A stretch of DNA of 64,000 nt from Carcharhinus longimanus. Lineage: Eukaryota. Positions 16,373 through 64,000 of the stretch are shown piece by piece. The stretch's first letter is position 1. The number at the start of each line of letters is the position of its first letter. The stretch covers positions 38,339,376-38,403,375 of the forward strand of contig JASCQW010000032.1 of assembly GCA_030264375.1 (NCBI GenBank), in the 5' to 3' direction. A model generated the notes under the pieces. The model was not told the DNA's origin. It did no database searches and worked only from the letters and a program-made list of their open reading frames with translations. The translations under genes were made by a program, and so were the position numbers.

Positions 16373-16631
16373 GGCTTGAAAAATGTCACTGTAATAGAAG
16401 GCGAATCTGTAACCCTGTCATGTGAAATCGCAGGACATCCAACTCCAACCGTGATGTGGTTTAGAGAAGATTATCACATTGAAAGTTCCATTGATTTCCA
16501 TATAACCTTTGAAAAAGGCATTGCTAGTATAACAATTAGGGAAGCCTTTGCAGAGGATAGCGGTCGCTTTACATGTACTGCCACCAATGATGCTGGTACT
16601 GCTAGTAGTTCATGTTATCTTCTTGTTCAAG
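16373..16631 (+). CDS. ttn: titin exon 18, Ig Z3
   Basis: GLKNVTVIEGESVTLSC...DSGRFTC...YLLVQ. Confidence 0.96.
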
Positions 16632-42674: not shown

Positions 42675-42929
42675 GTATGTTCAATATTTGTGTTTCAGTT
42701 TCATTTTTCTTATTCCAGTTTCCAGCTTCCACCCCTGAAAAGTTGACTTTTGCTAAGGTTCCAAATTTACACACAACATTCTTATACTTTAGCCATTCTC
42801 TTTATTTATGAACCCAGCCACCTCACCATAGATGGCATCGCAATGAGCTCCCTGTGCCACCCGTCATTTGTACAACGGAAACATTTTTTTTTCAAAATTA
42901 TAACTCAAAGTGGAAAAAGTTAAGGGATA

Positions 42930-43470
42930 ATATCCTGTACCCTAGGCTCCTAAAAGAGTTACCTGCGGAGATTTGCTGTTATGATTTTGCAAAGTCCCCT
43001 AGGTCCCAGTCAACTCGAAGTTGACAAATGTAATTCCATTATTCAGGGAAGGAAGGGGAGAAATTAAGGAACTACAGGCCAGTTGGCTTGACATCTGTTG
43101 TTGGAAAAATACTGGAATCTATTATTAAGGAAGTCTTAACGATGACCAGAGAAAGTCATTAAAGTTTTGCAAAATTGTGCTTGGAATTTTTTTGAGGAGA
43201 GCATAGATAACAGGAAACCCAGCTGATGTAATATAGTTGGATTTCCAAAAAGCATTTGGTAACGTGCCGTGCAAAGGTTTAAGGTACAAGCTAAAGATTC
43301 TTAGAATTGAGGGTAATATGTTAGAATAGTTAGAGGATAGGTTGGTGGACAACAAGCAGAGAGTAGGGTTAAAGGGGACATTTTCAAGTTGACAGGCTGT
43401 GACTAGTGGAGTACCGCTAGGGCTGGGGCTCAACTATTTACAATCTATATTAATGAATTATACAAATAGA
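42930..43470 (+). mobile_element. decayed CR1 reverse transcriptase fragment
   Basis: NYRPVGLTSVVGKILESI, LDFQKAFGNVP, VTSGVPLG. Confidence 0.85.
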
Positions 43471-44421
43471 CCAAGGGCACGATTTTACCAACTATTCGTG
43501 CCACACTCCTGCTGTAGCGAGGTCAGAGAATTTGGCACCCAGCCAAATCTCTGTTCGTGGCAGCGGGATGGGAAAATCCCACCAGCGTGAACAATGGTAA
43601 TGTTCCGGCCCAAGAATAATAAACCTAAGATAAAAGCAAATCGCATGTGAGGACCCGACGTGTTGGACCCTGCGAGTTGAGGAAACACAACCAACCCCTC
43701 AACAATGAGAGCCATCCAACCCCCCACATCATGCGGACATGAGGTTTATCTGACAGGACTTGCCACTCAGGCCCCCTTTGCCCCTGAATTCCCCAATCAG
43801 GCCCCCTTCCCACTCAGAACCCCCTCAGACCGCCCACTCTGGCACTTTTCCCACAGGCCCCCCGCGGCGGCCCCCCGGCCCCCCGCNNNNNNNNNNNNNN
43901 NNNNNNNNNNNNNNNNNNNNNNNNNNNNNNNNNNNNNNNNNNNNNNNNNNNNNNNNNNNNNNNNNNNNNNNNNNNNNNNNNNNNNNCACTCTGGCACTTT
44001 TCCCACAGGCCCCCCGCTGAGGCCCCCCTTCACCCCTCAGAATGCCACACAGCCTCCCTTCCCCTTGGACTCCCCAAACTGCCACCATTCACCTTTAGAC
44101 CCATCCCACTCAGTAACTAACACCCCCCCCACCCCACCTCACTGGTCCCCTTCCTCTTCAGACCAACCACTCAGCCTCCCTTCAGGCCATGCATCTTGGC
44201 AATGCCAACAGTGTACTGTCCCCTGGCATCCTAATGCTGACACATTGGCCTGGTGCCAAGGGCCCTGAAGGGGCTCAAGGAGGTAAGTCCAGTGACCATT
44301 TGTTCCTCAGAGGCTGACAGGCTGCAAAAGACTGATCCCTCAAGGGTCCTGGAAGTTGGGTGGGCTCAGGCTGAGGTAAAATAGTTGACCTTGCCACTCT
44401 CTGCTAGAATGGGGATGTTGT

Positions 44422-45606
44422 GGCTGGTCTGCCCTGCTAACCCTGGCAGACCTGAATATTGCCCTGGCATGGTGATTTCAGTCAGCCCTATGATCAAGAC
44501 CTGGGTTCCTGTCTGTCAGCTGTGAAAATTCTGAAGTGGCCAGTTCGCTTTCATCTCCATGTCTCCCCCGGTCACCTGGCAGGATTTTAAGTCGTTACAG
44601 CATTTTATTTGGCAGCCGAGATTTTCCTTTCACTCTGACCAAAGCTACAGGTGTGAAGTCCTCTGACAGAAAGGAAATGTCAATTTCATCTTGGGCGTGC
44701 GGAGGCTCCATTCTGCACAGTCATGCATTCAGCCCCAATGTGTGCACGCAGTTTTGACTTTCTGAGGTTTCCTAGCAAGCTGAAATATTGAAACCTATCC
44801 ATTGCACTTGAAGCCTTTGACCTGCAACAAATTCACTCTGCAGTGCCTCATAAAAGACTCAGCTGCCAACTCAGTGGACTTCTTTCTCCCTCCAACCACC
44901 TGTGTTTATTTTTATTTGCCTTCACGGTTGAACACCTCAAGTACCTCATTAATCCTGACCACAATGTTGACAGAATCTAAGTCTGATTGACTATTTGTAG
45001 TTTAGCTTCCTCTTTTACAAACCACTTTAAAGAGGAAGTTAGACTACAAACTGTAAATCTGGCTTAGTCTCTGCCAACATTGTGGTCAGGATCAGTGAGG
45101 TGCATTCAACAAACTCAGGTGGCTGAAGATGATCGAGACCCATTGAGCTGGCAGTTGAATCTTTTACTAGGCACTGCCTATTGAATTTATTGCAGATCAA
45201 GACTTCAAGTGCCATCGAGAAGGTTTCAACAATTTCAGCTTATTGGGAAGTGTCAGCAACTTCAAGTTGAAGCTCTGTGCATACATTAGGGCTTAATGCA
45301 TATGGTGCAGACTGGACCCCCCTGCCCCAGGTGAAATTGACATCTCCTATCAGGGAACTTCAAACGGGTCTACTCTCACCTGCAGCTTCTGACAGAGAGA
45401 AAGGAAAATCTCAGCTGCAGAATGGAATGCTGCAATGACTTAAAATCCTTAGGTTACCAGGCAGTATGGAGGTTAAAGTGACATGGCCACTTCAAAGTTT
45501 GCACAGCTGACAACCAGAAATGCAAATATTGATCACAGGGTTGCCTAAAATCATCATGCTAGGGGTGATCTTCATGTCTGCCAAGGTCAGAAGGGAAAGT
45601 CCAGCC
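44422..45606. repeat. ~1.2 kb imperfect inverted repeat (foldback/MITE-like) centred at ~45022
   Basis: Inner arms 44994-45015 / 45029-45050; complementarity traceable for ~590 nt each side. Confidence 0.9.
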
Positions 45607-47159
45607 AAGACCACCACCACCCCCCCCCCCATGCTGATGGAGAGTGGCGAGATCAACCATTTGCACTCAGCTCTAATTAACCTAAACTCTAGGACCCTTG
45701 AGCGATCTATCCTCTGCAATCCTCTGCAGCCTAGCAGTAGCAGAGTGGCAAATGGCCTCCTCGAGCCCCTTACAGCCTAAAGCACCAGATCAGAGTGCCA
45801 GGGAACAGTTCATTGTGGCACTTCCAAGGTGCATAGCCTGAAGGAAGACTGAGTGGTGGGGCGGGGTGGGGGGGGGGGGGGTGGGTGGNNNNNNNNNNNN
45901 NNNNNNNNNNNNNNNNNNNNNNNNNNNNNNNNNNNNNNNNNNNNNNNNNNNNNNNNNNNNNNNNNNNNNNNNNNNNNNNNNNNNNNNNNNNNNNNNNNNN
46001 NNNNNNNNNNNNNNNNNNNNNNNNNNNNNNNNNNNNNNNNNNNNNNNNNNNNNNNNNNNNNNNNNNNNNNNNNNNNNNNNNNNNNNNNNNNNNNNNNNNN
46101 NNNNNNNNNNNNNNNNNNNNNNNNNNNNNNNNNNNNNNNNNNNNNNNNNNNNNNNNNNNNNNNNNNNNNNNNNNNNNNNNNNNNNNNNNNNNNNNNNNNN
46201 NNNNNNNNNNNNNNNNNNNNNNNNNNNNNNNNNNNNNNNNNNNNNNNNNNNNNNNNNNNNNNNNNNNNNNNNNNNNNNNNNNNNNNNNNNNNNNNNNNNN
46301 NNNNNNNNNNNNNNNNNNNNNNNNNNNNNNNNNNNNNNNNNNNNNNNNNNNNNNNNNNNNNNNNNNNNNNNNNNNNNNNNNNNNNNNNNNNNNNNNNNNN
46401 NNNNNNNNNNNNNNNNNNNNNNNNNNNNNNNNNNNNNNNNNNNNNNNNNNNNNNNNNNNNNNNNNNNNNNNNNNNNNNNNNNNNNNNNNNNNNNNNNNNN
46501 NNCTCAGGATAGAAAATGTAACAAAATGGTGACTTTGAAAATCGAAACACCAGGTTTTACACCAAATGCTATTGGGAAATTTAAGTCTCTGACATTTTAA
46601 TAAAATTTATATTCCTGTGCCCTTTTTAAGTGGAAATACCATGGAACCCTAATAATCTAAGTGTAGATATAACAAAGTCTTGTATATCCCAAGTTAGTGT
46701 CTGAACTCCCTCTTTGCTATCTCTCTAACCGTCTCTAACTGGTTGCATACTTTTAAGGAGTTTTCAACAAGTACTGTTGGGCCTTTTCTCTCAGCTTGAA
46801 ATTTATTAATTAAATTTGATCATTCTACATTCATTGCAGAAGAACTTTCATTTTATAGATTTAAAATACATATTAGTACATTGTATTTGCGACTGAGATA
46901 AAGTTAGCAGTCTTTCACTTGTGTGAAGGTATTTTGGCAAAATGGTTGTTGGAAATATCAAACCTTTTCTTGTTGGACATAATACTGAAACAGTTCTATC
47001 CTTAATCTGGCTCTGACTGACATTAAAGCTAGCATTATATTGCTTCCAAAAATCCAACCCTTGTATGTGCCTGCTTCTACCTCTCTTTACTCTTCAAGAC
47101 ACTCTATGAAACCTATCACATTGATCAAGCTTTTGGTTATCTGCTTTGATACTTCTTTA

Positions 47160-48600
47160 CCCTAGAATGGTCACAACACAGAAAGATGTTATTCAGTGCA
47201 TTGTATCCTCACTGCTTTTCTACAAGAGCAACTCCACCATTCCAGTCCCTGCGTTTTTGCTGTAGTTTGGTAATTTTGTTCTTTTCAGTTAATTATCCAA
47301 TCCCTTTTCAAAGCCATGATCCGCCTCTAAGGGAATGGATTCATTGCGTGGGGAAAAAAAAACTTTCCTTCATGTCACCTTTGCTTCTTCTTTCATTCAT
47401 CTTAAATCATTGTTTTGTGGTTCTTGATCCTACCACTAAGGAAACAGTTTCTTCTTACCCACTATGTGCAGTCCCCTCATGATTTTAAACAGCTCTGTCA
47501 AATCTCCGCTAAACCGTGCCTTCTTGAAAGAGAGCAGCAAGTCCCTGAACCCTGGAAACACTCTGTGCAAATCTTTTCCTGTGCCCTTTCTAAGGCATTC
47601 ACATTCTTAAGTGTAGTGCCCAGAAATGGACACAAATCTCAAACTGAGCTTGAATCAGCATTGAAAAATATTCACCATAAGTTTCTTGCTTTTGCACTCC
47701 ATGCCTCTATTTATAAACATAATTCCAAATATCTTATTAACAGCATTCTCAACCTGCCCTATCATCTTCAACACCTATATCCAGGTGTCTCTTTTCCTGC
47801 ACTCACATTTGTAGTGTACTCTTTATTTTATATTACCTTTCCTTATTCTTCCTACTAAAATGTATCACTTCATACTTCCCTGCAATAAATTTAATCTGCC
47901 ATCTGCCTGTTTTACCATGTCCTCCTGAAGTCTATCACTATCCCCCTCATGGTTCGCAATATTCCCAATTTTGTATCATTTATAAATTTTGAAATATTGC
48001 CCCTCACACCCAAGCCAAGTTCATCAATATAGATCAAGAAAGCAATGGTCGTAATACTGATCCTTGGGGAAGCCCAGTATATACTTTCTTTCAATCTGAA
48101 AAAACAATTGTTGCCACTGCTGTTGTTTCCTGTCACTCACTGAACTTCAAATTCATGCTGTCACTGTTCCTTTTATTCTCCGGACTTTAACTTTGCCAAC
48201 AACTCATCTATGTGGCACTTTATCAATCGCCTTTTGAAAGTCCATGTACATCACATCAACCCCATTACCCAATCGACTCTTTCTGTTACACCATCAAACA
48301 TCTCAAATCAAGCTAGTTCAATACATTTAATCTTGAACAAATCCATACTTGTTTTTCTTTAATCCAAGTGATAATTAATTTTGTCCCAGGTTATTGTCTC
48401 CAAAACCTTCCCCACCATCAAAGTTAAACTAACTGGCCTGTATTTGCTGGACTATCTTTAAACTCTTTTTAAATCCTGAGTGCAACATTTGCAATTTTGC
48501 AATCCTCTGGCACCTATTTCTAAAGCGGATGGGAAGATTATGACCAATGCCTCCATGATTGCCACGCTTACTTCACTCAGTATCGTCAGATGCATTTGAT
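47160..48600 (-). mobile_element. decayed CR1-type LINE 3' half
   Basis: FLIYIDELGLGVRGNISKFINDTKLG (FADD-like), DFQKAIDKVPH on minus strand. Confidence 0.85.
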
Positions 48601-49280
48601 GGAGTCGTAGTGACTTGTATAGCACAAGGTCAAATCTTATTTACTGTTGCTCATGTGCAGCACCGTGGGAAGTTTTACCACACGAATGATACTATATAAG
48701 TATCAGGGCTGCAGAGTTTGGTTATGTAGTACTAGTGATTTTGGAACTCTGAATTCTAGTTTTATTAGCAAATTACATCCATGGCATTTCTGCACACAGC
48801 CGGTGTGATGTGTGTGAAATTCCAATTTGTTAAGTACAATAGGGAGTGTAAGTAAGATAGAAATATGCAGACTAGACAGATTATGATGTTGGCCAGCATC
48901 TGACACCGATTTAGCAATAGATGTGCCATTTTAGACCTTGCTATTCTTATTAATGCCCTCTTTGAAACACACCGAGATACCCCATCAATGTAATTTATAA
49001 ATCATTAACGTCTTACAGGTCAATTGCTGCTGGCTGATCAAATTTCTGGAAGTGCTAAGTGGTGTTGCACATGGGGCGAATATTACTGTTAACTGCAAGG
49101 GCTCTGAGTACACCACATCATGGGCAATAGTAACAGTTTCCTTGGGTTGGAACATGAAGGGAGATGGTGCAGAAGCAGCAATTGAGAAGACAAGCCATAT
49201 GGAGAGGGAGGAGGGAAGGAAAGAAGCAAGAGGTATTTACACACCTGCAATCCTCCCGAGCCCTCATCCTAACTCTAGTT

Positions 49281-49442
49281 ATGATGTGGAGGTGCCGGCG
49301 TTGGACTGGGGTGGGCACGGTAAGAAGTCTCACAACACCAGTCTATTTCTCCACTCACCTGATGGAGGAGCAGCGCTCTGAAAGCTTGTGATTCCAGATA
49401 AACCTGTTGGACTTTAACCTGGTGTTGTGAGACTTCTTACTG
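49281..49442. mobile_element. Penelope-like short element with 22-bp inverted repeat and flanking direct repeat
   Basis: IR 49320-49341/49419-49440; taactctag(t/c)t on both flanks. Confidence 0.7.
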
Positions 49443-50092
49443 TAACTCTAGCTAAGTCTGGGTCAGGTGTCTACAATTTACCAAGGAGATGGCCAAAGAA
49501 CACTACTTTTTCTTGGGAACAGGGTGAAGACAACGTTGTCAGTGTCTATAATGGTGACTGTGGCACTTAGTTTTTCCACAACCAGCTCTGTCCAAGCTGG
49601 AAAAAAAAATGACATGGCTAACACCTGATTCACCTTCCAGTGATGGATGGGAGAGGTGATGGTACTTCTGTCTGCCAGAAGACGGGACTTCATTGTGTTT
49701 CCCTGAACAGTGAGAAGCAGGAGGAGCATGTATCTTGCTTTGGAAGGAAAGCGGGCTTCTCTTTGGCGCAGGCTGCCATCTGCTGCATACATGTGGCTTT
49801 AGGGACATTATGTTTGGATTTTCATCATCAGGCAGGCAGTGGGAGTTGAAGAAATTCCCGGCTTGGTTCACCTAGGAGAAATTGCCCAAAAAGATGGGTC
49901 TTAATTGTGGAATTGTAACTGTGGTTGAGCTGTAATCAGATCAGCTGACCTGGGAATGTTTGAAGGCAGCCCAGGTGATCCAACAGCCTAATGGATTTTG
50001 AGGTTTTTAACCAAGCATTCATAATAAGGGCTTGGCTGAGAGCCCAGCAATCTTATTAGACTGTTAAAGCACCTGACCTTTCGAAGAAAACA

Positions 50093-50200
50093 TTGCCATG
50101 ATTCATTGAAAACCTGGTCTGACTCCATGAAATTTTGCCACGATTCATTAAAAACCTGGTCTGACTCCATGAAATAGGCATGGTCTGACTCCATGCCTAT
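50093..50200. repeat. 42-bp tandem duplication followed by a 10-bp-stem hairpin
   Basis: ttgcca(t/c)gattcatt(g/a)aaaacctggtctgactccatgaaat x2; ataggcatgg/ccatgcctat. Confidence 0.8.
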
Positions 50201-50499
50201 TCTCACAATGGAATTGGCCAGGTCAGCAGTACAGGAAATAGACTTCGAAACTCTGGGAATGGGGTCAGGAATTCCCGAATCAGGTCTGGCCACCATTTCT
50301 AAAGGACTTCTACATCATCCTGACTGGGTGAAAATCCAGGCCTACATTTCAACTGTGAGCTATTCCAAAACCATAAACTCAGGGGTTGTATGCCATGCTC
50401 AGCACATCATGTCGCTGAATGCCTACTGTCCTGGAAATAGTCATGTCGCATTTATTCTATGCCAGTTGCAACTGTCTTTCAGCCATAAGGTCAAAACAT

Positions 50500-50730
50500 A
50501 GGTGGGCAACATGAGTTACCTACCTTATACCTGGCTAATGAAACCCCTTTACAAACTAACCACATATAGCAAGCATGCTACCGTGGGAAACATCATTGGG
50601 CAGAAGAAGGAGTGCTGGAGCATTGGGTATGCTGTCTAGATTACTGTGAAGGTGCCCCCCACTATTGACCAGAGCGAGTATCCATTTTGTAACGGATGGT
50701 TGCATACCTTATAACTTGGTCATCATGATA
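50500..50730 (+). mobile_element. decayed Harbinger transposase C-terminal fragment; element probably extends to ~52070
   Basis: VGNMSYLPYTWLMKP and CCLDYCEGAPHY*PERVSI...YNLVI resemble HARBI1 GDxGY..WLMTP and CLD.GG.LQY.PE. Confidence 0.65.
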
Positions 50731-52401
50731 GCACAACTCTTGCCACCAAGAATATGGCAAGTACTTCAGAAAGAGAAGCAAGAGGACAGGATGGACTGTG
50801 TATGAACATGTAATTCAACTTCAGTTCTTGTGAATAATGCCACAAATCTTAATTTTTATAACAAGACACCCAAATACTCCACAAAATATTCAGCTAATTA
50901 CTTTTGTGCATTTCCTTTATGTCTGCCTTCTATGTCCCCATGACTATCCTAGTGCTTCAGTATGGTGTTACCTCAGTGACGGTTGCATGAGCGATGGAAG
51001 GTAGGAAATTGCAAACAACCTTGGAGGGCAGTTTTTAGCAGCTCTGGGCCATGGTTCAGACTGCACTGCCTCAGCAATCTGGGCTGACTGGCTTACAAGG
51101 CAGCAGCAAGAGCACTGGCAGGCTGACAGCAATAGAAGTATAAATGCTATCATCCTGAGGGAGTATAGCACTTGTATACTCCCAAGCTATCACTGCTACA
51201 CCACCTCAGCAATCAAGTAAGCTTCTGGAGGACATATTGCCAGACAGTGAGACTCTGCAACCCCTTTGAGCACTGCTGCCTGCAGCCATGTTGGCAGCAC
51301 TCTGAGCCTGCATGGCACCAAATTGGACTTGTTTGGCAATAAGCTGAGATTTCATAACTTCAGTTTGAATTTCCACTGTCGTACTGACATGTTGGGGGCT
51401 TCTGTTTTGCTGCAATGGAAGTCAAAGCATCAGACATCGGACTATGGTTGGGTCTAGAATGTTCTCATGGAATTTGCCACTACTTCCACACTGGAAAGAA
51501 TGGGCTTCAAGCTCTGCACAAAACTCATGCCAAGTTGGATCCATACTTCTGCACATTTCTTAAGGGGTGGCAGCCTTCCTGGCAGGTCTGCTAGTGCTTC
51601 AAGCATTTCTTTCTGCGTGCCAGCTAGCCTTGTTAGATGAGGGTGAAGCATGACTTGAGAAGCTGGGCCATCAGGAGGAACATAATGTCATCCTCAGTGG
51701 ATTAAACCCTGCCACAGGCCCCTGCTTCAGTAACAACTCTTCCACTGGTGGCAAGCACTGTCTCCTCCATGGAGATCAGCACATGCAGTCTTCCCACACT
51801 CCCTTCTCACCCCACCCTGGCAGGTGCCACCTTGTCCTAAGGAGAGAGTAGGAAGTGTGTCATTGAGTGTGGTGCAAAGTGTTTGGATATTGTCTATGCC
51901 ACAGTTGAACAGCTGGCAGAATGTACAAGTTGTGAGATGCAAGTTTGCATCTGCAAGCTGCACAGTCACCTGGAAATATTTAGCTGTAACTCTCAGGCTG
52001 TGCTGCACTTCAATCTGTACTATGCTGAAAATTTGCAGTCCTTCCTCTTGGTTAGCTAGCACTTAACCTGTGGATTTCTTCTATCTTTACAGTGTGGTTC
52101 TCTAACTCCACTTCTTTGTTGTTTTTGCTGCTGGGTGTTCCCATTGTTTGTACAGAGTACCACTTTCTGCCCTTCCTTCTTTTACATAATCAGTTCATAT
52201 CCTTAATCAATTTTTATATGCTGTATATATATTTCAGCTGCATTATTTCAAATTATAAGCACTGCACAGTTACATTATTTGAATTTAATTGTGATACTTT
52301 TAAGTTAATGCCGTAGCTTATTAAGTTGAAGTTTGTTTGTGAGATTACAACCAATTCGCAACATTTTGGTGAAACTGCATTTTTTTAAAAAATACATTTA
52401 G

Positions 52402-52590
52402 ATATGAAGGTTACATGGTATAGTAAGCAGAAGGAGATCAAACAATCGCGATTCTTCAAGATGGTTCAGTTTGAAGATACCTACCAACTGGAAGTTGCTG
52501 AAGCATACCCGGAGGATGAAGGAATGTATAAATGTGTAGCATCCAACTCCGCTGGAGAGGTGTCGTGCACTGCTAACTTAAAACTGGAAG
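52402..52590 (+). CDS. ttn: titin exon 44, Ig I15 C-part
   Basis: MKVTWYSKQKEIKQSRFFKMVQFEDTYQLEVAEAYPEDEG. Confidence 0.96.
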
Positions 52591-53315: not shown

Positions 53316-53592
53316 GATATAGAAAGGTCGATTACATCAAAGACATCATATGTCTACGTTTGGCTCTTCTGAAGAAGCAACATGAGTCCAAATGCCTTTC
53401 TTTAGTGTGTGCATTTTAAGTAGGCAAGTGCACATTGGGCCGGCAAGCATATTATATGCAATAGTGTCTGTTGGTCCCAAACCAAAGATCCAAGGATTGC
53501 ATAATGGACAGTTAATCAAGCCAAGAAAAGTTCTGGTGCTTCATTTTGATAGTCTAAGAACAACAGTATACTTATTACTGATGCAAGAATAA
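53316..53592 (+). pseudogene. ttn: degenerate Novex-1 (exon 45) pseudoexon
   Basis: Acceptor ttcctttccag; QMPFF..QVHIG..AIVSVGPKPKIQGLHNGQLIKPRKVLVLHFD resembles recalled Novex-1 Ig; two frameshifts, C-terminal half missing. Confidence 0.75.
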
Positions 53593-54120
53593 AATTAGGA
53601 TTTCCTTGGTATAGTTCTTGTTAACTGACTTAGCAATTTCAGCAAAGTACAGCCCACATTGGGCAATATAAATATGGAAAGCATAAATAAACTATACTGG
53701 CAAAAAAAATCTAATAGTGCTCTACTTACAGTAAACAATTTACCCTCTGACTAGATATTTGCTGTAATCCTTCCAAATAGTATATTTTTTGATTTTGCAC
53801 TTCATATCACCTCATGTTTCTAAAATCTGATTCCTTTAACACACAATTTAGAAGCCTTTCATCTTCATCTTCATCTGGAACATTTGCAAGAGAAGAACTA
53901 AATCTTCATTTTGTTCAATGAATGCCATTTTCTCCCATGGAATTTTGCAGATTTTATTGAGGAAAAGGAATTGGGAGTTTTTCTCAATCAAGTGAATTGC
54001 ACCTCTTTAGCATGTGGTGAGCATGCTGGGTTGCCCGTTGGACAACATGAGCTGTTGCTTTGATTATTTTGTCAGTCATGATTTAATATCATGATTAATA
54101 CTTTGTCTTTTGTTACTCAG

Positions 54121-55005
54121 ATTACAAAGTGCAAAGCATAGATAGTCAGAGCATAACAACTTCTGGAAAAGCTGTAGAGGAATCCATCGCTTCAAAGACT
54201 TTTGAAGTATCAGAAATGCATGTGGAGTCCCCTGTGACCTTAACGCATACAAAGAACTATACCAAGGAAATCAGTTTGCAGCAAGAACATACATACAGTG
54301 TTCAGACATTTGAAAGTATTTCCATGAGTTCATCAAGCAAAACAGTTTCCTCTGGAAGTTGGGAAGAATGCCAAAAAGTTGCCAAGACGGAAACAGTTAG
54401 AAGTGGCTGTCAAAGTTCGCCAAAAATCTTGCAAGATCTGAATGATGTCACAGTTTTGTTAGGTCAAACTGCATCTCTAAAATGTCAAATTCTAGCATTG
54501 CCAAGACCTGAAATAAAATGGTATAGAGAAGATCAAGAACTTGTGGAAGTTAAGAGAATTAAAATTGTTTCTATAACAGAAGATGAAGTTTTGACATCAT
54601 CTGAATTAATTATAGAACAGATCCAAGAAGAAGACACAGGAATTTATAAATGTAAAGCTACAAATCCTTTTGGCGAAGTTAAATGCAAAGCCGAAATAAT
54701 TGTTACTGCAGCCAAACCTGCCCTTGAGGTTCCCCTGATTCTCCTTGAACTTAGTGATCTAAAGGTGAAGGTTGGCCAGATGGCACAGTTCATCTGTTCT
54801 TTTAGCGGGGAATCTTTTACAGAGGTCATATGGCGTCACGGAAGCACAAGACTGGAAGAATCACGAAGACTGAAGATTTCTCAGAATGGAAATGTTATGT
54901 CTCTCACTATCCTAAATGTGCACTTAGAGGATCAGGGACAGTACAGCTGTACTACAAGAAATGAAAGTGGTGAAAAGAAGACTACTGCTATACTAATTGT
55001 AGAAG
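54121..55005 (+). CDS. ttn: Novex-2-like exon (exon 46) with two Ig domains
   Basis: 885 nt, phase 1-1; VQSIDSQ, YSVQTFESIS, EESRRLKISQNGNVMSLTI match recalled Novex-2. Confidence 0.9.
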
Positions 55006-55296
55006 GTGGTTGTTTATTATTTTATTTACAAACAGCATCCTGATCCATCCACTTGATGTTTCTGTTCCAAAATAAGTTTGGTACCTTTTTAAGAAGATCC
55101 TAAATTTACTTATTAATAGTAAAATGTTCAGTTTAAAATGTTTAGCTAGTGATTTATACAAACCTTAACACTAGACAGACCAAGTCTGCATGAATTATTG
55201 CAAACGTTGCCTCTTGCTGTTATAATTTTTTCAAGTATTTACTTTGCTGAAATTATTAAATCAGTTAACATTTATCCTAATTTTATTCTTGCATAG

Positions 55297-55812
55297 CTGA
55301 AGAATCAAAACCCAAAACAGGTGCAAAAATTCCCACTGATAGCAGTTCAGATAGCACAATAACTGAACAAAGACCACATATCACACCTGATAGCACACCA
55401 GAAGTACAAAAGAAACCATCAAGTCCACCACCGTCTTCAACCAAAAGGCCAACTGGAAAATAGAAGCTACGAAGCCGAGACTATTATCCTGATGTGGTGC
55501 CCTTTGACGAATTGATAGACACTGGAGCCATAGCACCGATGTTCTTAGAAAAGCTACCTCCAGAAATCATTGTACAAGATGGAGAAGATGTTTTGTTGTT
55601 CTGCATCGTAAAAGGTGTACCATCACCTTGTGTACTTTGGCTGTGCAACCAACGCATAGTTGAAGAATCTTCATTGTGTTCCATTAAACATGATGGGTTA
55701 CTATGCAGTTTAAAAATGCAAAATGTCTGCCAAAGGCACAGTGGCACTTATTCATGCAAAGCGGTTAACTCTGCTGGAGAAACAGCGTGCAACACTCTAC
55801 TTAGAGTGACAG
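55297..55812 (+). CDS. ttn: extra Novex-like exon: S/T/P linker + Ig domain, with in-frame TAG at 55461-55463
   Basis: 516 nt, phase 1-1, acceptor ttgcatag, donor AG|gttggc; APMFLEKLP...FC.VKGVPSP..W...HSGTYSCKAVNSAGE. Confidence 0.7.
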
Positions 55813-56240
55813 GTTGGCAATTGCATGCTTTGGTCCTTCCCAATGTGACTTTATCATGCATCTCAGCACATCCTATGGAAAGATTCTTTGCAGAAAATCA
55901 TCTTGTTGACCTGCGGATTATTGCATTCATTTTTCCTGAAATCAGATTAGGCATGTTGAGGCATGTTTGTTGTTTCGATACAGAGCAAAATGGAGAATGA
56001 TTTTTTTTTACAAAACCCTGGATTGCCTGAATTATCTTTATGATTCAGTCAACCAGTTGCTTGGTAAATCCTTCTAGAAATCACAATTAGCGAATATATT
56101 TAATTTTTTGCATGTATGTTTTGTATGTCTTTGCATATTAAATGTATTTTGAGTTTCATTTTCCTTTTTGCATATTTTATTTTGTGGGGAAAAACAGTGA
56201 TACATTCTTATAATTATATTCAATATTCATTTTCATGCAG

Positions 56241-56288
56241 AAAAGATTCAAGACAAGATTGAACAACAGATAGAAATGGAAGTGAGAG
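56241..56288 (+). CDS. ttn: titin exon 47 micro-exon
   Basis: EKIQDKIEQQIEMEVR resembles recalled ERIEQEIEMEMK; 48 nt phase 1-1. Confidence 0.92.
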
Positions 56289-57547
56289 GTAATACTTTTA
56301 TTATTATTCAATAAACAATTATTTAACTTTGCATTTAATGCTAGGTTTGAACAACTGCTATCAACTTTGATATTTTGCCATCATGATAAGTTGTGCTGTG
56401 TTACAAAGTATTAAAAAATTACACGTTGTCTATGCCAATCTGATTTACAAACCCAACTTCTTGTTGTCATTCTCATTTTGACCTAAACAAAAAAACCCTT
56501 TAACATCAAAAATATTTACTTTGCAGGAAATGTTATTTTTTAACCAGTATTAGTTCCTCATATTTCTGCTGAATTTCAATTTGAAATTGCTCATTGTCAT
56601 AATTGATACACTGCAAAAGGGATATATAGAGTTACATTCAGTAAGTTGTATTCTAACATGAATTATGTAATGAGAAGTGGTTAAATGAACTCTCAACTAT
56701 CTGTCGTTCAATGATTGAATGCTGGAAATATATATTTTAGTGGTGATTACTTGAATCAGTACTTTTGTTGCTCTCATTTACTTCTGATTTTCCAATAAAT
56801 TTTTCGATAAAGAACTCACAGGCAATATTTCATAAAGGAACTTTGACGAGGGTCTTTTCCATTTTTAGCATTCATTTTCTTTCATTTTCATGACATCAAC
56901 CTATCCTCATGTATTTACACTGCCTTGCAGATAGCAGTATGTGTTCACGTACGCTGGCATTTTTTTGCATAATATTGTGAATCTAGCAACTATATTAGTT
57001 CGAATAAACGCCTTCTCATGCAAATTGGAAGGATTACAGTTATGGATGAATTTATTTCCATCTATTGATTCCAATTCTAAAAACAATCTCTATCAAACTG
57101 GCTGAAAAATTTACCTGTTGTTGAAAAAGGATCAGAAAGGGCGTTTATTCTGCTGTCTGCAAGTCAGGTAAGAATTGTAATAACCTAGATATCCCCAAAT
57201 CACAGGGACAGATTTTACATTCAAAAATAAGAAAATTCTTTCATGAGATCACTTTATGCTTTTTTCAAAATATACACTCTAATTTGATTTTTGAGAAGAA
57301 ATTGCAACAGTCTGAAGAAGGAACAAAGAACGAGCGATTTTCCTGCTCAGAATCTTTAAAAAGAAAATGGTCTTGTGTTTATTCGAACAAATATGGTGAG
57401 TGAATTTTTTACAATATTTGTGAAAAAGCTGATGCATTAAGTTCATCATTTCATCATATTACAGATTTGTTCTAAATTTAAATTCTTATAATGTTTTGAA
57501 CTGGCTTTTAAGAAACTTCATACAAATTATTTCTTTTTTTTTTGCAG

Positions 57548-60500
57548 AGTTGTTTTTTGGTGCTGGGACAGAATATTTGGAAAATCGAGAAAACCTGCGT
57601 GATGCATTTTCGGATGCCGAAGATTATTTAGATCAGGGAATGNNNNNNNNNNNNNNNNNNNNNNNNNNNNNNNNNNNNNNNNNNNNNNGGTCTGAGAATT
57701 TCAGGCCATCTTTCACTGAAAAGCTCAAATTCAAATCCGTAATGGAAGGAGAACAAGCTATTTTTAAATGCAAGTTGGTTGCCAGCCCAGCACCAAAAAT
57801 TGCATGGTTTCATAACAACAGACCTATATGTAAAGATTCAAGAAGGATTATTAAAATAGAAAGCGTAATGCACATTCACAACTCAAGTTTGGAAATCAAT
57901 AATGTAGAAGAGAAAGATTCAGGGAGTTACAAAATATTTGCAATAAACTCTGAGGGCTCAACAGAGGCAACTGCATCTTTACTCATTGCACTTAAAGAAG
58001 AGCAAAATGCAAACTATCTGAGCTTTCTGAAAAGATCAGAGATGGTTCACGAAAGTATAGACTCATTAGTTAAGAAGCGGGATGCAAGACTTAGAGTTGA
58101 TCTCAGACATGTTGGATCACCCTTTGATAAGAAATATCAGGTTCAAGGAGCTTTGCGTAAACATTCAAATTCTAAAAGCAAACTGATGCGTACAATGTAT
58201 TTTGAAAGAACACCAATAAGGCATTATCTGTATAAGGACAGATCTGCAGAAATACAGTCATCTAGATTATCAGGGAGGGTTCTCGATAAGAATAGTTTGA
58301 TTGATGAAGATATTAAAATTAAACTGCAGCTTTTACGTGAAGCTAAAAGGAAAAAAAGATTTTCTCTTGCATTCTCTGAAGCTTCATTTGATCTGGGCAC
58401 TGCATCGGTTGAAGACAATCTGAAGTATAATTTTGCATATTTAGACAGGGAGCGCAGCAGAAGTATGGGAGATATTGATCACATGGATTTTGAACCTAGT
58501 AAGTCTTATTTTGTGCAAGGACAGGAGCTGTCTTCTGGTGACTATTTCCAGAGAGAGTCTCCTGAATTTCAGTGTCGAATGGAGCGGGTATCAGGACTTT
58601 CTCCACAGGAAGTAGAACCACAAAGAGACCTGAAAGAAAATTTTACTGAAGAGTCTTCCAAAACAAACGTCATAAAGTCATTACCAGAGCAATTTCTGAA
58701 AGGTAGTTTAATTCAAGAAACAGAACAAGCACAGCAAAGTCAGTACTGGTTGGAAGAAGAGGAAACCGATGAATGCTATTTTCAGAAGCAATTTGATGAA
58801 AGAGAAGAACCACAGAGTGAACCTTGTGAAGAACCACAGACATTCTCTGACCAGTGGCTTGGAGGCTTTATTAGTATGCAAAGGGACGTAATAGCAAAGG
58901 GGCCTGGAGAGTTGTTTGAGCCTCCCACACCAGCAGTTAAAGAAACACCAATAATTCAAGAAGCAGCACAGCCTGAAGCCAGTGTTGAATATCCAGAGAT
59001 TTTACTGAAGGAAAAAGAATTCTGTCTGTTTGACAGAACACCAATAAAGCAAACTCCAGTGGAATTTAAAGAATGTCCAAGTAAATCAGAGTTGAAGGAA
59101 GACCATGAGATATTTTCTGACCAGTGGTCTGAAAGTTTGGTCAGTGTGCAGAACTCATTAGCAAAGGGACCTGAAAAGAACCAGTCAATGNNNNNNNNNN
59201 NNNNAGCAACTGAGATAAGTGGATCCAGATTTGGTGAACAAGATGACGTGGTGAAAGAATCTACACAAAAACAGATGCCTTCTCCTTTAATAGAAGAAAA
59301 AGAAGCCTCCACTCTTTTCAGAACATCATTTGATGATAACACTATGGAAATAAGCAAAATTTCATGCAGAGTTGAAGACGAAGAAGACCCCAATGCACCT
59401 TTTGACAGATGGTCTGGGAATGTCTTAGTAAAACAGGGGTTTGGATTTGACCACGTAATCATTGATCCAACAAAATCCACTTCCGAGGAAAGTGAGATCA
59501 GTGTCTCTAAAATCAACCAAAAAGCAGCACAATTTGAAAATGAAGATTATACCCAGATGATAACACCCTCTACTTTGCCAGAGAAAATAGAAACCTCAGA
59601 ATTTGTCAGTTCCTTGGTGAAAGAAATACCAAAAGAGGTGAAGCATATTCCATTTAAATCTGACAAGGTGAACTATGGGACATCTGTGGAACATTGGCCT
59701 GAGAGATTCATTAGTGTACCCAGTGACTTACTAACTCAAAAACCTGAAGATGGTCATAAAATATCTGACCAACCTGCATCAGCAGCCAGGCAGGCAGAGG
59801 TAGTTAGTATGTCCAAAATCAGGCATAAAACCCCACAAGATGAAGCACAGTTTACAGATTCCAACCATGTTGTGAGACATTCTCCCCTGATAGCAAAAAC
59901 AAAAGAAACATCAACTTTTACTAGAACAGTGATAAAACAAACTCCAGAGGATATAAAAGAACCTCCATATAAATCTGATGTTGAAGAAGAACATGAGTCA
60001 CCTTTTGATAAAAGGCATGGAAGATTTATTTGTGTGGAGAAAGACTTTCCAGCAACAAAATATGAAGATAGCCATAAAATCCCACTGACTGATAAAGGCA
60101 GATCAACAGTAGATCATGCAGAGGTGATTGATTTATCTAAACTCAGTGAAAAAGAGCAGCATAAAGGCAAGGTTGAAGAATTCACTACAATACTAAGACC
60201 TTGCATACCAGAAAAGAAAGAAACTTCAATATTTGTCAGTTCACCCACAAGTAAAAGAGCAACAAAAATAAGAGAACCTCCATATAAACCTGAAGTGAAG
60301 GATAGTCACCAGATACCTCCAGAGCAATTTGTCGGAGGTTCTGTTGGTCTGATGAGGGATTTTGTAACTGAAAAGTGTGAAGATACCAATGGAACAACCA
60401 ATAGGCCCATACCATTACTCGAACAAATAGAGACAACTAGCATATCTAAAATCAGTCAAAAAGAGTCACACCCTGTAGGTATGGCTACAAGCACCACCCA

Positions 60501-61519
60501 GATAATACACATAGAACCAGACAGCAAAATTGAATCAAGCTTTTTCATTTCTTTGAAGAAAGAAACAGCAATGGATTCCCCAAAAGAACCTGCATATGAA
60601 TTTGGACATATGGAAGATCATGGAACAGCAGATGACCGACAGGCTAGCTTTCTAACTGAGAAACCTGAAGAGAGTCATGAAATGTATAACCAACCTAAAT
60701 TTGCAGAAACACAGGCTGAGATGGTTAGTGTAGCTAAAATCAAACAAAAAGAGCCACAATACGAAGCAAAGATTGTGCATTCCACACGGATGGTGAAGCC
60801 GCCTTCTTTATCAGATGAAATGGAAACTTCAACTTATTTAAGTTCATTGAAAAAGCCAACTCCAATAGACAAAATAGAATCTCTTGAAAAAGCAGAAATT
60901 AAGGAAGACCCTGAGACAGCTGTTGAAAGTTTTGCCATTATGCACAGAGACTTCCTGACAGAGAACCTGGAAGGTGACCATGGAATACTTGATCAATTAG
61001 CAGATAGAGATATAGCAAAGATTAGCACATCTGAAATTAGTCAGAAAGAATCACAACAAGAATGGAAAGTTAAATGTTCTACCCAAACAGTGAGACCTTC
61101 TCCTTCAACAGAGGAAAATAAAACTTCAAATTTCTTCAGTTCATTAGTGGATGAGACACCAATACAAATACAAGAACATCAAAATAATTTTTTAGCTACC
61201 AAAGAATCTCCAAAACAAGAGCCTCCGACAATTAAACATTGCCCACCTGAATTTCTCCATCATGTTGCATCTACCAAAATTAAGCAAGGAGTCTTGTGTG
61301 TGCTTGAGTGCCAATTTCAAGGACACCCACAACCTACTGTAACTTGGTACAAGGATGAACGCCCAATTCAACGAAATATGGGCTATACTATTCACTCCAT
61401 GGAAAACCAATCTACATTGAGTATTGGATGCACATGCAAAGAAAATGAAGGAGTATATACATGTGTAATATTCAACCAATATGGAACTGCAAGTACATCT
61501 GGCAGCCTTACGATACAAG
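57548..61519 (+). CDS. ttn: Novex-3 (exon 48) part 1: Ig, long unique/repeat region, Ig
   Basis: RDAFSDAED, FRPSFTEKLKFKSVMEGE, WFHNNRPI, RVDLRHVGSPF; donor AAG|gtaaga; contains two small N gaps. Confidence 0.93.
58800..61200 (+). repeat. degenerate ~270-320 nt (~90-105 aa) coding repeat, about 8 copies
   Basis: Recurring SKIxQKE..Q, ETSxFxSSLxKxTP, EDH..D/E, DFLTEKxE motifs. Confidence 0.75.
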
Positions 61520-61627
61520 GTAAGATTCTTAATGCTTTATTTATGAAATTATTTTCTTAAATATGTTTTTGCAACATATTTTATGAATGATGACTTCAGA
61601 TTAATGAAAAATATTTTTATTTTCCAG

Positions 61628-64000
61628 AACCAGAACTGTTTGAAGAACCTTTGAAAAGGTTTGACATACATGTTATTGAAGCGCCAGAGAACTATACTGA
61701 AGAAGATGATGTTGACCAGTTGCTTGAAAATGAGATGGAGTCTTATTTTCCACCGTTTACTGTAACAAAATCCACTTTGCAATTACCAAAGATTGCAGTA
61801 CCGCGACCTTGTCCTGTAAATTTATCTTTGCTTTCTTCTCCTGTTGAAATTAAAATAACGGCTCCAACTCCAACACCAGAGCAAGATGAAGAACGGAAAG
61901 AGTTACTTCAAGAAGATGAATCTGATTCCAAGCATTCATCTCCAGAACTGTCCTCTCAGACCTCAAAGNNNNNNNNNNAGCACAAATTTACATTTTCTTT
62001 TGATGTAATTTCTGAACCCCCACAAGTTTTAAAAGAATTAGATAAGATTTGTTGTGCAGAAGGAGAATCGGTGATGTTTGAATGCCTAATTTCTGGAGAG
62101 CCAACACCTATTGTTACATGGACCCAAAATGACAGAGTTTTAACTTATGATAATAGCAAGCACCGATTTGAAGAGAGTGGAGGAATGTATAGGTTATACA
62201 TTGATGATGCTTCAGAATCTGATGTGGGGAACTATAAGTGTGTGGCTAAAAATAAAGCTGGACAAGTACAGAGCACATCTAGTCTTACAATAGAGCCCAC
62301 AATGCATAGTTTTGTTTGCCACCTGAAGGATATTGAGCCATATGGTGAGGAGGCAGAGCCATCTGTCAGCCGTTTTCTCCTCAATTTAAGTAAAATGGGA
62401 CAAGAAGGTATTGAGCAGCAAGAACAATTATCAGTACAGGAAGGGCATGTGGACACTTCTCCTTTATATAGCAGAAAAGAACAAACATTAGATCTAATTT
62501 CTGAATCTGGAGACTCTTTGATTTCCACTGCTGATAAATTTTCGAGTAAAGTTTCATCTTTAAAGGAAGAGGGCATTGAAGCCAAAATAGAATCAAATAC
62601 TTCCTTTTCTGATGAAATTTCATCTTTGTGGGAGGAAAGCAATAAAATAGTCTCAGATTCAACAAGTTCCTTTCCTGATGAATGTTTGAGTAAATGTTCA
62701 TCTTTAACAGAAATTAGTAAAAATGTAGGTCAAAAAATGCCAGATGTAGCAGCAGAACAAACATATTCTATTAGCGAGTATCTGCGCTCTCTTGATGAAG
62801 ACCAGAAGGTGCATGAAGCTTGGAAGATGGAAGAGGAAACGGAACCAAAAGGGGACAAATGTGACTCTGTGAGCGAAATGTATGAGGATAGTACATTTCC
62901 AGAAAGTGTACTTAAGCAAGTTGCAGAAAGTCCCAGAGCAGAAACAGAAGGGAATGGATCAGAGATGAAGCCAAGTGGTAACTCCATATCCCCTGAACCC
63001 ATTTGTGAAATAAATGTCAATCTAGCAGAAACAGTTTCTAGGAAGGATGAGGAAGATGAAAATGTTTCCATAGCACGATATCTCCTTACTGCAAGACAGG
63101 AAGAAGCACCAATTCATGAAGAGGCAAATAATGAGGCATTTGGGTACGATGAATCTGGGATAACTTCGATGGAGATTGAGGAAGTAACATTCGGTGCTGT
63201 TTATGACTATTATAATCAAAATGAAGAGTGGGTACGCTCTCTATCCCCTGAATCCGAAATGTCAATTGAAATTAGCAGTACAATTAGTGATGATGTAGCA
63301 GAGAATGGAAGATTTTATACACCACCCTTGGCTTCTGATAATTTCAAATCTGCTGTGTCTGCAGAGTCATTCCATACCCCACCGCAATCTCCTGGCTATG
63401 TGACTCCTCCAGAGAGATTGCCTCCACTTAATGTTGTGGGTAGGTCTCCTTCTGGCGCTTTGCTAGAGAGGTTTTATACACCACCTGAATATTTCAGATC
63501 CCCGATAGATGAGGGTATTGAAACAACACCTCTTGAATATATAAGTCTAGCTGCTGAGGAGCAAAGATCAGAGTTATTTTCAACTCCTGCACAGGAAGCT
63601 GAAGCAAAAGGAAATGAAACACCGCCAGCATTTATCAAACCTCTTGTCAGAAAGAAGATCTATGAAGGAGGCACACTTACATTTATCACTGAGGTAATTG
63701 GTTGCCCAGTTCCAAATGTTAAGTGGTACAGAAGGAAATCATTATTGGAACCAGACCATAGAACTAGACTTGAAAGAGAAGGAGGTTTGTGTATATTGGT
63801 AATTCATAGCATCCAGAGAGAGGATGAGGGAGAGTACATTTGCAGTGCTGTCAACATCATAGGAGAAGCCAAAACTGTTACTCAGGTGGATGTTTTACCA
63901 CAAAATGGAAGGTCAATTGCATTGCCACCCCCAGTGACTCATCAACATGTTATAGAATTTGATGTGCAACAAGGCCAAACATCAAGAACTCCTTCACCTC
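61628..64000 (+). CDS. ttn: Novex-3 part 2 (open to window end; two Ig domains visible)
   Basis: SPVEIKITAPTPTPEQD, EPPQVLKEL..CAEGESVMFECLISGEP, PPAFIKPL, ALPPPVTHQHVIEFD; not in ORF track because no stop occurs in window. Confidence 0.93.

Follow-up and report, generated by a model that had tools for sequence, protein, structure and literature searches.

The exon and its place in the Novex cluster

How does a titin exon that encodes a complete immunoglobulin (Ig) domain come to carry a stop codon ahead of that domain, and does the stop matter? The 64,000-nt stretch of shark DNA analysed here (the window) holds the 5' part of the titin gene, where a tblastn map begins with the first Z-disc Ig domains and reaches Novex-3, and one cassette exon on its forward strand, to which all coordinates refer, is interrupted by an in-frame TAG (55461-55463). 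The exon (55297-55812) is bounded by AG at 55295-55296 and GT at 55813-55814, measures 516 nt, a multiple of 3, and is in phase with its neighbours (phase 1-1). It encodes an S/T/P-rich linker of 54 codons (55299-55460; 28/54 residues are S, T or P), the TAG, 22 further linker codons (55464-55529) with a conserved DYYPDVVP motif, and a 94-residue Ig domain (55530-55811). Downstream of the TAG the exon frame is open for 116 codons, with many stops in both other frames. The preliminary description of a symmetric 516-nt exon with an S/T/P-rich segment, an in-frame TAG and a complete I-set Ig of eight cysteines was confirmed in every part from the frame and a profile match. No second copy of the exon was found within the window.

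As judged from exon sizes and the tblastn map, the Ig is encoded in the titin gene, in a phase matching its exons, and so belongs to titin. Sizes of 285/126/189 nt (exons 42-44), 48 nt (exon 47, as in frog) and 85/100 nt (exon 48') agree with those in Table 1 of PMC5852582. The acceptor of the Z3 exon lies at 16373, and Z3 has no in-frame stop. The intron between exons 43 and 44 (42675-52401) is 9.7 kb long and carries repeat-like open frames; the published table gives 0.6-5 kb for this intron (PMC5852582).

Following the exon 44 equivalent (52402-52590, 189 nt), the Novex cluster consists, in order, of a Novex-1 remnant, a two-Ig Novex-2-like exon, the exon under study, the exon 47 equivalent (56241-56288, 48 nt), exon 48' and Novex-3. 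The remnant (53316-53690, the end coordinate being approximate) is decayed by a frameshift and stops, and is taken as Novex-1 (exon 45) from its position after exon 44. Plaice and Xenotaenia models have, directly after exon 44, an exon that matches the remnant (E 4e-8; plaice, 38% over 65 aa, E 5e-12). Read from its acceptor, it meets a stop after 33 codons, its Ig part lies in another frame, and the Ig core Trp is lost. The start of a model from the shark Heptranchias matches the remnant in two frames (9/18 and 7/12), and from this alignment Novex-1 seems to be broken in Heptranchias too. The cassette next to it (54121-55005, 885 nt, linker plus two Ig, weak donor of 2.3 bits) is intact in both sharks, occupies the position of Novex-2 (exon 46) and is 312 nt longer than human exon 46, which it presumably resembles. 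On position and on this resemblance, it is probably Novex-2. In bony vertebrates Novex-1 is described as the best conserved of the Novex exons (PMC5852582).

Exon 48' (57296-57395) has both of the acceptors described in the literature, which give 100 nt and 85 nt (from 57311). In its region 35/37 residues match Cetorhinus and Pristiophorus, and the shark, ray and chimaera models are nearly identical; this conserved element of bony vertebrates, with its 100/85-nt acceptors, is now extended to cartilaginous fish. Nested inverted repeats nearby (21 nt, 56989/57377; 16 nt, 57002/57135) share an arm, the first of them spanning the exon 48' donor, and competing RNA pairing at 56989-57397 that controls exon 48' is possible. 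Novex-3 (exon 48, 57548-64000) is open and runs off the window. It is split here by a 108-nt intron (61520-61627), and is a single exon in bony vertebrates according to the published table (PMC5852582). Overall, the window Novex-3 is 78% identical to that of Cetorhinus, the closest, 71% to Pristiophorus, 53% to Callorhinchus and 29% to gecko.

Novex-1 and Novex-2 each consist of a unique linker and one Ig (I16 and I17, respectively; PMC11033294), and both are optional, symmetric and situated in the exon 44-47 interval, with low abundance and lineage-specific loss (PMC5852582). The exon at 55297-55812, which shares this interval, the symmetry and the linker-plus-Ig layout, is a cassette of this Novex type, but differs from both in being the third cassette of the interval, in being more Cys-rich and in its DYYPDVVP motif. 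An assignment to Novex-1 was rejected, since in teleosts the exon after exon 44 matches 53316-53690 instead and the two fall in separate clades. The exon is probably not Novex-2 either, on position, size and the probable resemblance of the upstream exon to human exon 46; it is the second cassette after the remnant, with 516 nt against 552-582 nt for exon 46, and the first, with 885 nt, is one Ig longer than 573 nt (table of PMC5852582). Novex exons are of low abundance (PMC5852582; PMC5874998), and the published table lists no exon 46 for pig, rat, mouse or zebrafish; elsewhere, transcripts with this exon are rare or retain introns (PMC5852582). Because the Novex-1 neighbour is decayed and Novex exons are rare or lost elsewhere, the view of the present exon as optional and skippable is supported.

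A cysteine-rich Ig domain downstream of the stop

The part of the exon following the stop matched the Pfam I-set profile PF07679 over profile positions 4-90 of 90 (E 5.9e-17; 62 bits against a cut-off of 23.7). Its predicted fold is a full I-set sandwich, with pLDDT of 97-99 over residues 21-116 and a model pLDDT of 90.4 from a 16-row alignment. The best structural match of the Ig model was titin I67-I69, with an rmsd of 0.8 A over 94 columns. Among PDB sequences no close relative was found, and Atlas searches returned generic I-set clusters only.

The eight Cys codons of the Ig are at 55602, 55629, 55644, 55677, 55704, 55728, 55755 and 55788, against 0-6 cysteines in the 13 other Ig stretches of the window, and seven of the eight are common to the Heptranchias orthologue. 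A CysB-CysF-CysG triad is present in the Ig model at residues 47, 98 and 109, in strands 43-52, 94-102 and 105-115, respectively; such a triad is reported for 21/101 human titin I-band Ig domains (PMC5766482). With this triad, the modelled domain would resemble I-band Ig domains of the I67 and I69 type, from which it differs by five more Cys on or near strands C, D and E and the EF loop.

Orthologues and the ancestral codon

Heptranchias is a squalomorph shark; the shark sequenced here, to go by a Novex-3 closest to that of Cetorhinus, is probably a galeomorph and only distantly related to it. In a Heptranchias perlo gene model (P0001, misnamed 'myosin light chain kinase-like') the two-Ig exon is spliced in frame to the orthologue of 55297-55812. 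This orthologue is identical at 147/171 positions and open through the stop site, with Glu at the TAG position. A partial orthologue was also obtained between exons 44 and 47 of a Gekko kuhli model (P0190; 46% over 136 columns, E 2e-36), again with Glu at the TAG column. The gecko sequence is a reciprocal best match (E 7e-35 as against 1e-4 for the next), from a record which is flagged 'UNVERIFIED_CONTAM' by NCBI and ends half way through the Ig; the Novex-3 part of the same model finds its closest matches among squamates, in proteins of monitor lizard, lacertid and snake. The Ig of this exon and those of its Heptranchias and gecko orthologues formed one clade at 100/100, from which Novex-1 and the two Ig of the upstream exon were separate. 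Over the 54 linker codons, identity was 44/54 to Heptranchias and 13/54 to gecko. The DYYPDVVP motif is common to both sharks and gecko, and the residue right after it is Cys in the Heptranchias and gecko orthologues and Phe in the window exon. These alignments indicate that the exon already existed in the ancestor shared by sharks and lizards. An initial reading of the DNA noted no counterpart among human exons 45-48; orthologues do exist, in Heptranchias and gecko, whereas the lack in human stands as far as exon order and size in the published table go.

A homologue search found the exon in 0/43 candidates among proteins of 94-300 aa, and gave one true orthologue among five matches from 536 candidates of 301-2000 aa. 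In a representative-protein search, which was swamped by multi-Ig proteins, the exon was absent among the 150 matches listed. Screening for the exon covered the 68 named-source matches of 120 listed, of which one has it, the other 52 being unnamed records and three unrelated named proteins. It is included in one of the eight named models that span the exon 44-47 interval, an indirect hint, along with its weak donor, of low inclusion. In public annotations the shark Novex region is broken up into separate genes (P0001, P0146, P0156-P0161), misnamed 'myosin light chain kinase-like', 'unc-89-like' or 'uncharacterized'.

Because Heptranchias and gecko both have Glu at the TAG column, we consider the stop to be derived, as judged at the protein level from two orthologues, both of them gene models (full-length titin models were too long for the search). 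The lesion was most likely GAG>TAG, where GAG is deduced from the amino acid, because it is the only Glu codon one change from TAG. The orthologous codon in other sharks had been proposed as a check, and in Heptranchias it is Glu in an open frame. The TGG>TAG change put forward at first is contradicted, as neither orthologue has Trp, and a conserved role as a poison exon is excluded by Glu in 2/2 orthologues.

Age and reality of the stop codon

Downstream of the stop the exon is identical to Heptranchias at 103/116 residues and to gecko at 48/77. The intact Novex-3 domains Ig1 and Ig4 are identical to Pristiophorus at 85/97 and 77/93 residues (162/190 together) and to gecko at 61/97 and 61/93. 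Conservation after the stop is thus on par with these intact domains (Fisher p 0.49), in a calibration that uses Pristiophorus in place of Heptranchias. Decayed controls at the same locus, short at 53 residues, are identical at only 27/53 (p 2e-7). Because the post-stop part is as conserved as the intact Novex-3 Ig domains, with no excess divergence downstream, the alignments indicate that the stop is recent. A rough model rejected death over the whole branch (66% identity expected; p 1e-8) and put the inactive time at no more than about 12-25% of the branch, which could still amount to tens of millions of years in slow-evolving sharks. An exon dead for long, or an ancient dedicated poison exon, would have company in the Novex-1 remnant, an example of a dead exon retained at this locus, but is most improbable in view of the single lesion, the identity far above that expected of an exon dead over the whole branch, and a frame open in Heptranchias and across the part aligned to gecko.

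Besides the stop, the polarised amino-acid changes number six in the window lineage against one (p 0.125), or two against one after the stop. Four of the six lie in the poorly aligned linker, and one replaces a Cys common to Heptranchias and gecko. This lean of six to one hints that relaxation may have set in earlier than the rough dating would have it. With post-stop conservation and open orthologues taken together, 'very recent pseudogenisation or a nonsense allele' proved the best of the options listed in the preliminary description.

Could the stop be an error of base calling or consensus, the true codon being GAG and the exon intact in this shark? One substitution would explain everything, the exon being otherwise conserved like intact exons; the assembly has several runs of N; and the codons flanking the TAG also differ from Heptranchias (K/T and L/P), as a local consensus error could cause. 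Against this, the rest of the mapped titin coding sequence in the window, 32 exons or parts of exons with 14,953 nt, has no in-frame stop, which sets a 95% upper bound of 0.10 for a stop-making error in 516 nt. Further, the lone stop among 15.5 kb of mapped coding sequence sits in an exon that makes up 3.3% of that length; uniform error would place it there 3.3% of the time, while a tolerated mutation is expected in an optional exon. Stops also arise from only 78 of the 1,530 possible single changes in the exon. We therefore regard an error as unlikely, while giving it some weight.

A real stop might still be bypassed, either by ribosomal read-through or by A-to-I editing of UAG to a Trp codon, so that the Ig is made. 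The intact Ig after the stop, which is predicted to fold, would suit this, but a recent stop accounts for an intact Ig as well, and the ancestral residue is Glu. CUAG and CARYYA are contexts that favour read-through, and the context here, TAG AAG, is unlike either. No unusual RNA structure was detected at the codon (z -0.61; 52/200 shuffles fold as well), and none of the five inverted repeats in 54000-57600 covers the TAG. Read-through, as suggested earlier, is left without support from 3' context, RNA structure or conservation of the stop, and bypass of either kind is very improbable. The TAG was also considered as a new 3' splice site (TAG/AAG or TAGAAG/) and rejected; the two sites, neither of them in phase, score -5.7 and -7.7.

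Splice sites and inclusion of the exon

The acceptor of the exon (55272-55296) is strong, at 10.3 bits. The donor, CAG/GTTGGC, scores -3.8, below all 29 reference-exon donors (1.7 to 13.2, leave-one-out), on a crude matrix derived from the window itself. The 'intact splice sites' of the preliminary description hold in so far as both sites are present and the acceptor is strong, but the donor is the weakest scored. Among in-phase internal donors before the stop, at 55320 (3.9), 55344 (-8.8) and 55422 (-3.7), only the first is plausible, and it would give an exon of 24 nt.

The weak donor GTTGGC opens a conserved stretch (55813-55868) with TGCATG at 55822. When this stretch of about 57 nt is read on in frame in Heptranchias, 19/19 residues are identical, followed by 11/23 (p 1e-4). 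The 428-nt downstream intron has four GCATG motifs, with 0.5 expected (p 0.002, post hoc), which we take to be of the RBFOX type. The motifs and the conserved stretch suggest, at the level of sequence, regulated inclusion in muscle. Alternatively, a terminal exon could run on through the stretch as coding sequence. The Heptranchias model stops there after 42 codons, against 62 codons of run-on in this shark, and this difference favours a regulatory element. Poly(A)-type hexamers are present at 56137 and 56310. A terminal-exon role for the exon as such thus receives some indirect support from the weak donor, the end of the Heptranchias model in the run-on and the hexamers.

These features bear on whether the TAG itself is in use in this lineage, either as a poison switch on titin mRNA or as the end of a mini-titin that falls short of Novex-3 titin by about 1,800 residues or more. 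The strong acceptor and the four GCATG motifs mean that regulated inclusion may persist, the hexamers would serve a terminal exon, and truncated, intron-retaining Novex-2 transcripts are described for human, chicken and frog (PMC5852582). However, both orthologues are open at the TAG codon, the conserved Ig after the stop would be lost from the product, the stop was neither seen shared among the two orthologues nor showing selection, and poly(A)-type hexamers are common in AT-rich introns. Use of the stop is therefore improbable. A bolder version is equally doubtful, in which jawed vertebrates have a fourth Novex element, so far unrecognised, in this exon, and it serves as a composite terminal exon as well. 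Splicing would often pass over its weak donor and translation would continue into the 19/19 run-on; the product would be a mini-titin far shorter than the Novex-3 form, with a redox-sensitive Ig of 7-8 Cys as its cap. In this shark a fixed TAG would then act as a poison or truncating switch.

A probable explanation: an ancient optional cassette with a tolerated stop

The explanation that we favour, and consider probable, is that of an ancient optional Novex-type Ig cassette, undescribed in the literature searched, with a recent and tolerated nonsense change. When included with an open frame, the cassette would insert, after the Novex-2 position and ahead of exon 47 in the proximal I-band, about 78 linker residues and one Cys-rich Ig. 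One G>T change would have turned the Glu codon into TAG, in the lineage of this shark or in this individual. Most transcripts would skip this symmetric exon with its weak donor, inclusion being presumably low, and full-length and Novex-3 titin would be unaffected. A stop more than 50-55 nt upstream of the next junction elicits nonsense-mediated decay (NMD), and the TAG lies 349 nt upstream of the exon donor, beyond that distance, so that the few including transcripts would be expected to undergo NMD. The lesion would be tolerated because the exon can be skipped and the rare including transcripts are degraded. The exon would then stand at the first step of a decay already undergone by its Novex-1 neighbour. 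The stop itself is probably ordinary, and the ancient exon the interesting part. Conservation between shark and gecko as strong as this sits uneasily with full dispensability.

The nearest parallel is with truncating variants in low-PSI exons of TTN, likewise nonsense changes in skippable symmetric exons; mutations in such exons are reported to be usually mild (PMC9222585). The present case differs in coming from a shark assembly, in an exon without a listed human counterpart, and in that the change may be fixed. The Novex-3 terminal exon belongs to the same cluster, and a stop in an alternative exon would likewise give a short titin, but the Novex-3 stop ends a multi-kb exon, whereas the stop here is derived and lies ahead of the only domain of its exon.

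The elephant-shark connectin map, the only chondrichthyan titin gene map found, shows Novex-I, II and III, with two cassettes before Novex-III; its text gives no sizes or sequences for these and mentions no stop codon (PMC12241362). The exon at 55297-55812 could be the elephant-shark 'Novex-II' or could be unlisted in that map. No description of the exon was found in the open-access text searched on titin Novex exons, including those of sharks.

Titin exon catalogues rest on the human gene, and an exon with 62% identity between shark and gecko is apparently missing from them. The Novex cluster of the ancestral jawed vertebrate would have had at least three optional cassettes, with separate later losses of Novex-1 in these sharks, of Novex-2 in rodents and pig, and of the exon at 55297-55812 probably in mammals. 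The stop would matter only if it is fixed and in use. One locus thus shows intact, freshly stopped and long-decayed cassettes side by side, a natural counterpart to the tolerated truncating variants in rarely used TTN exons.
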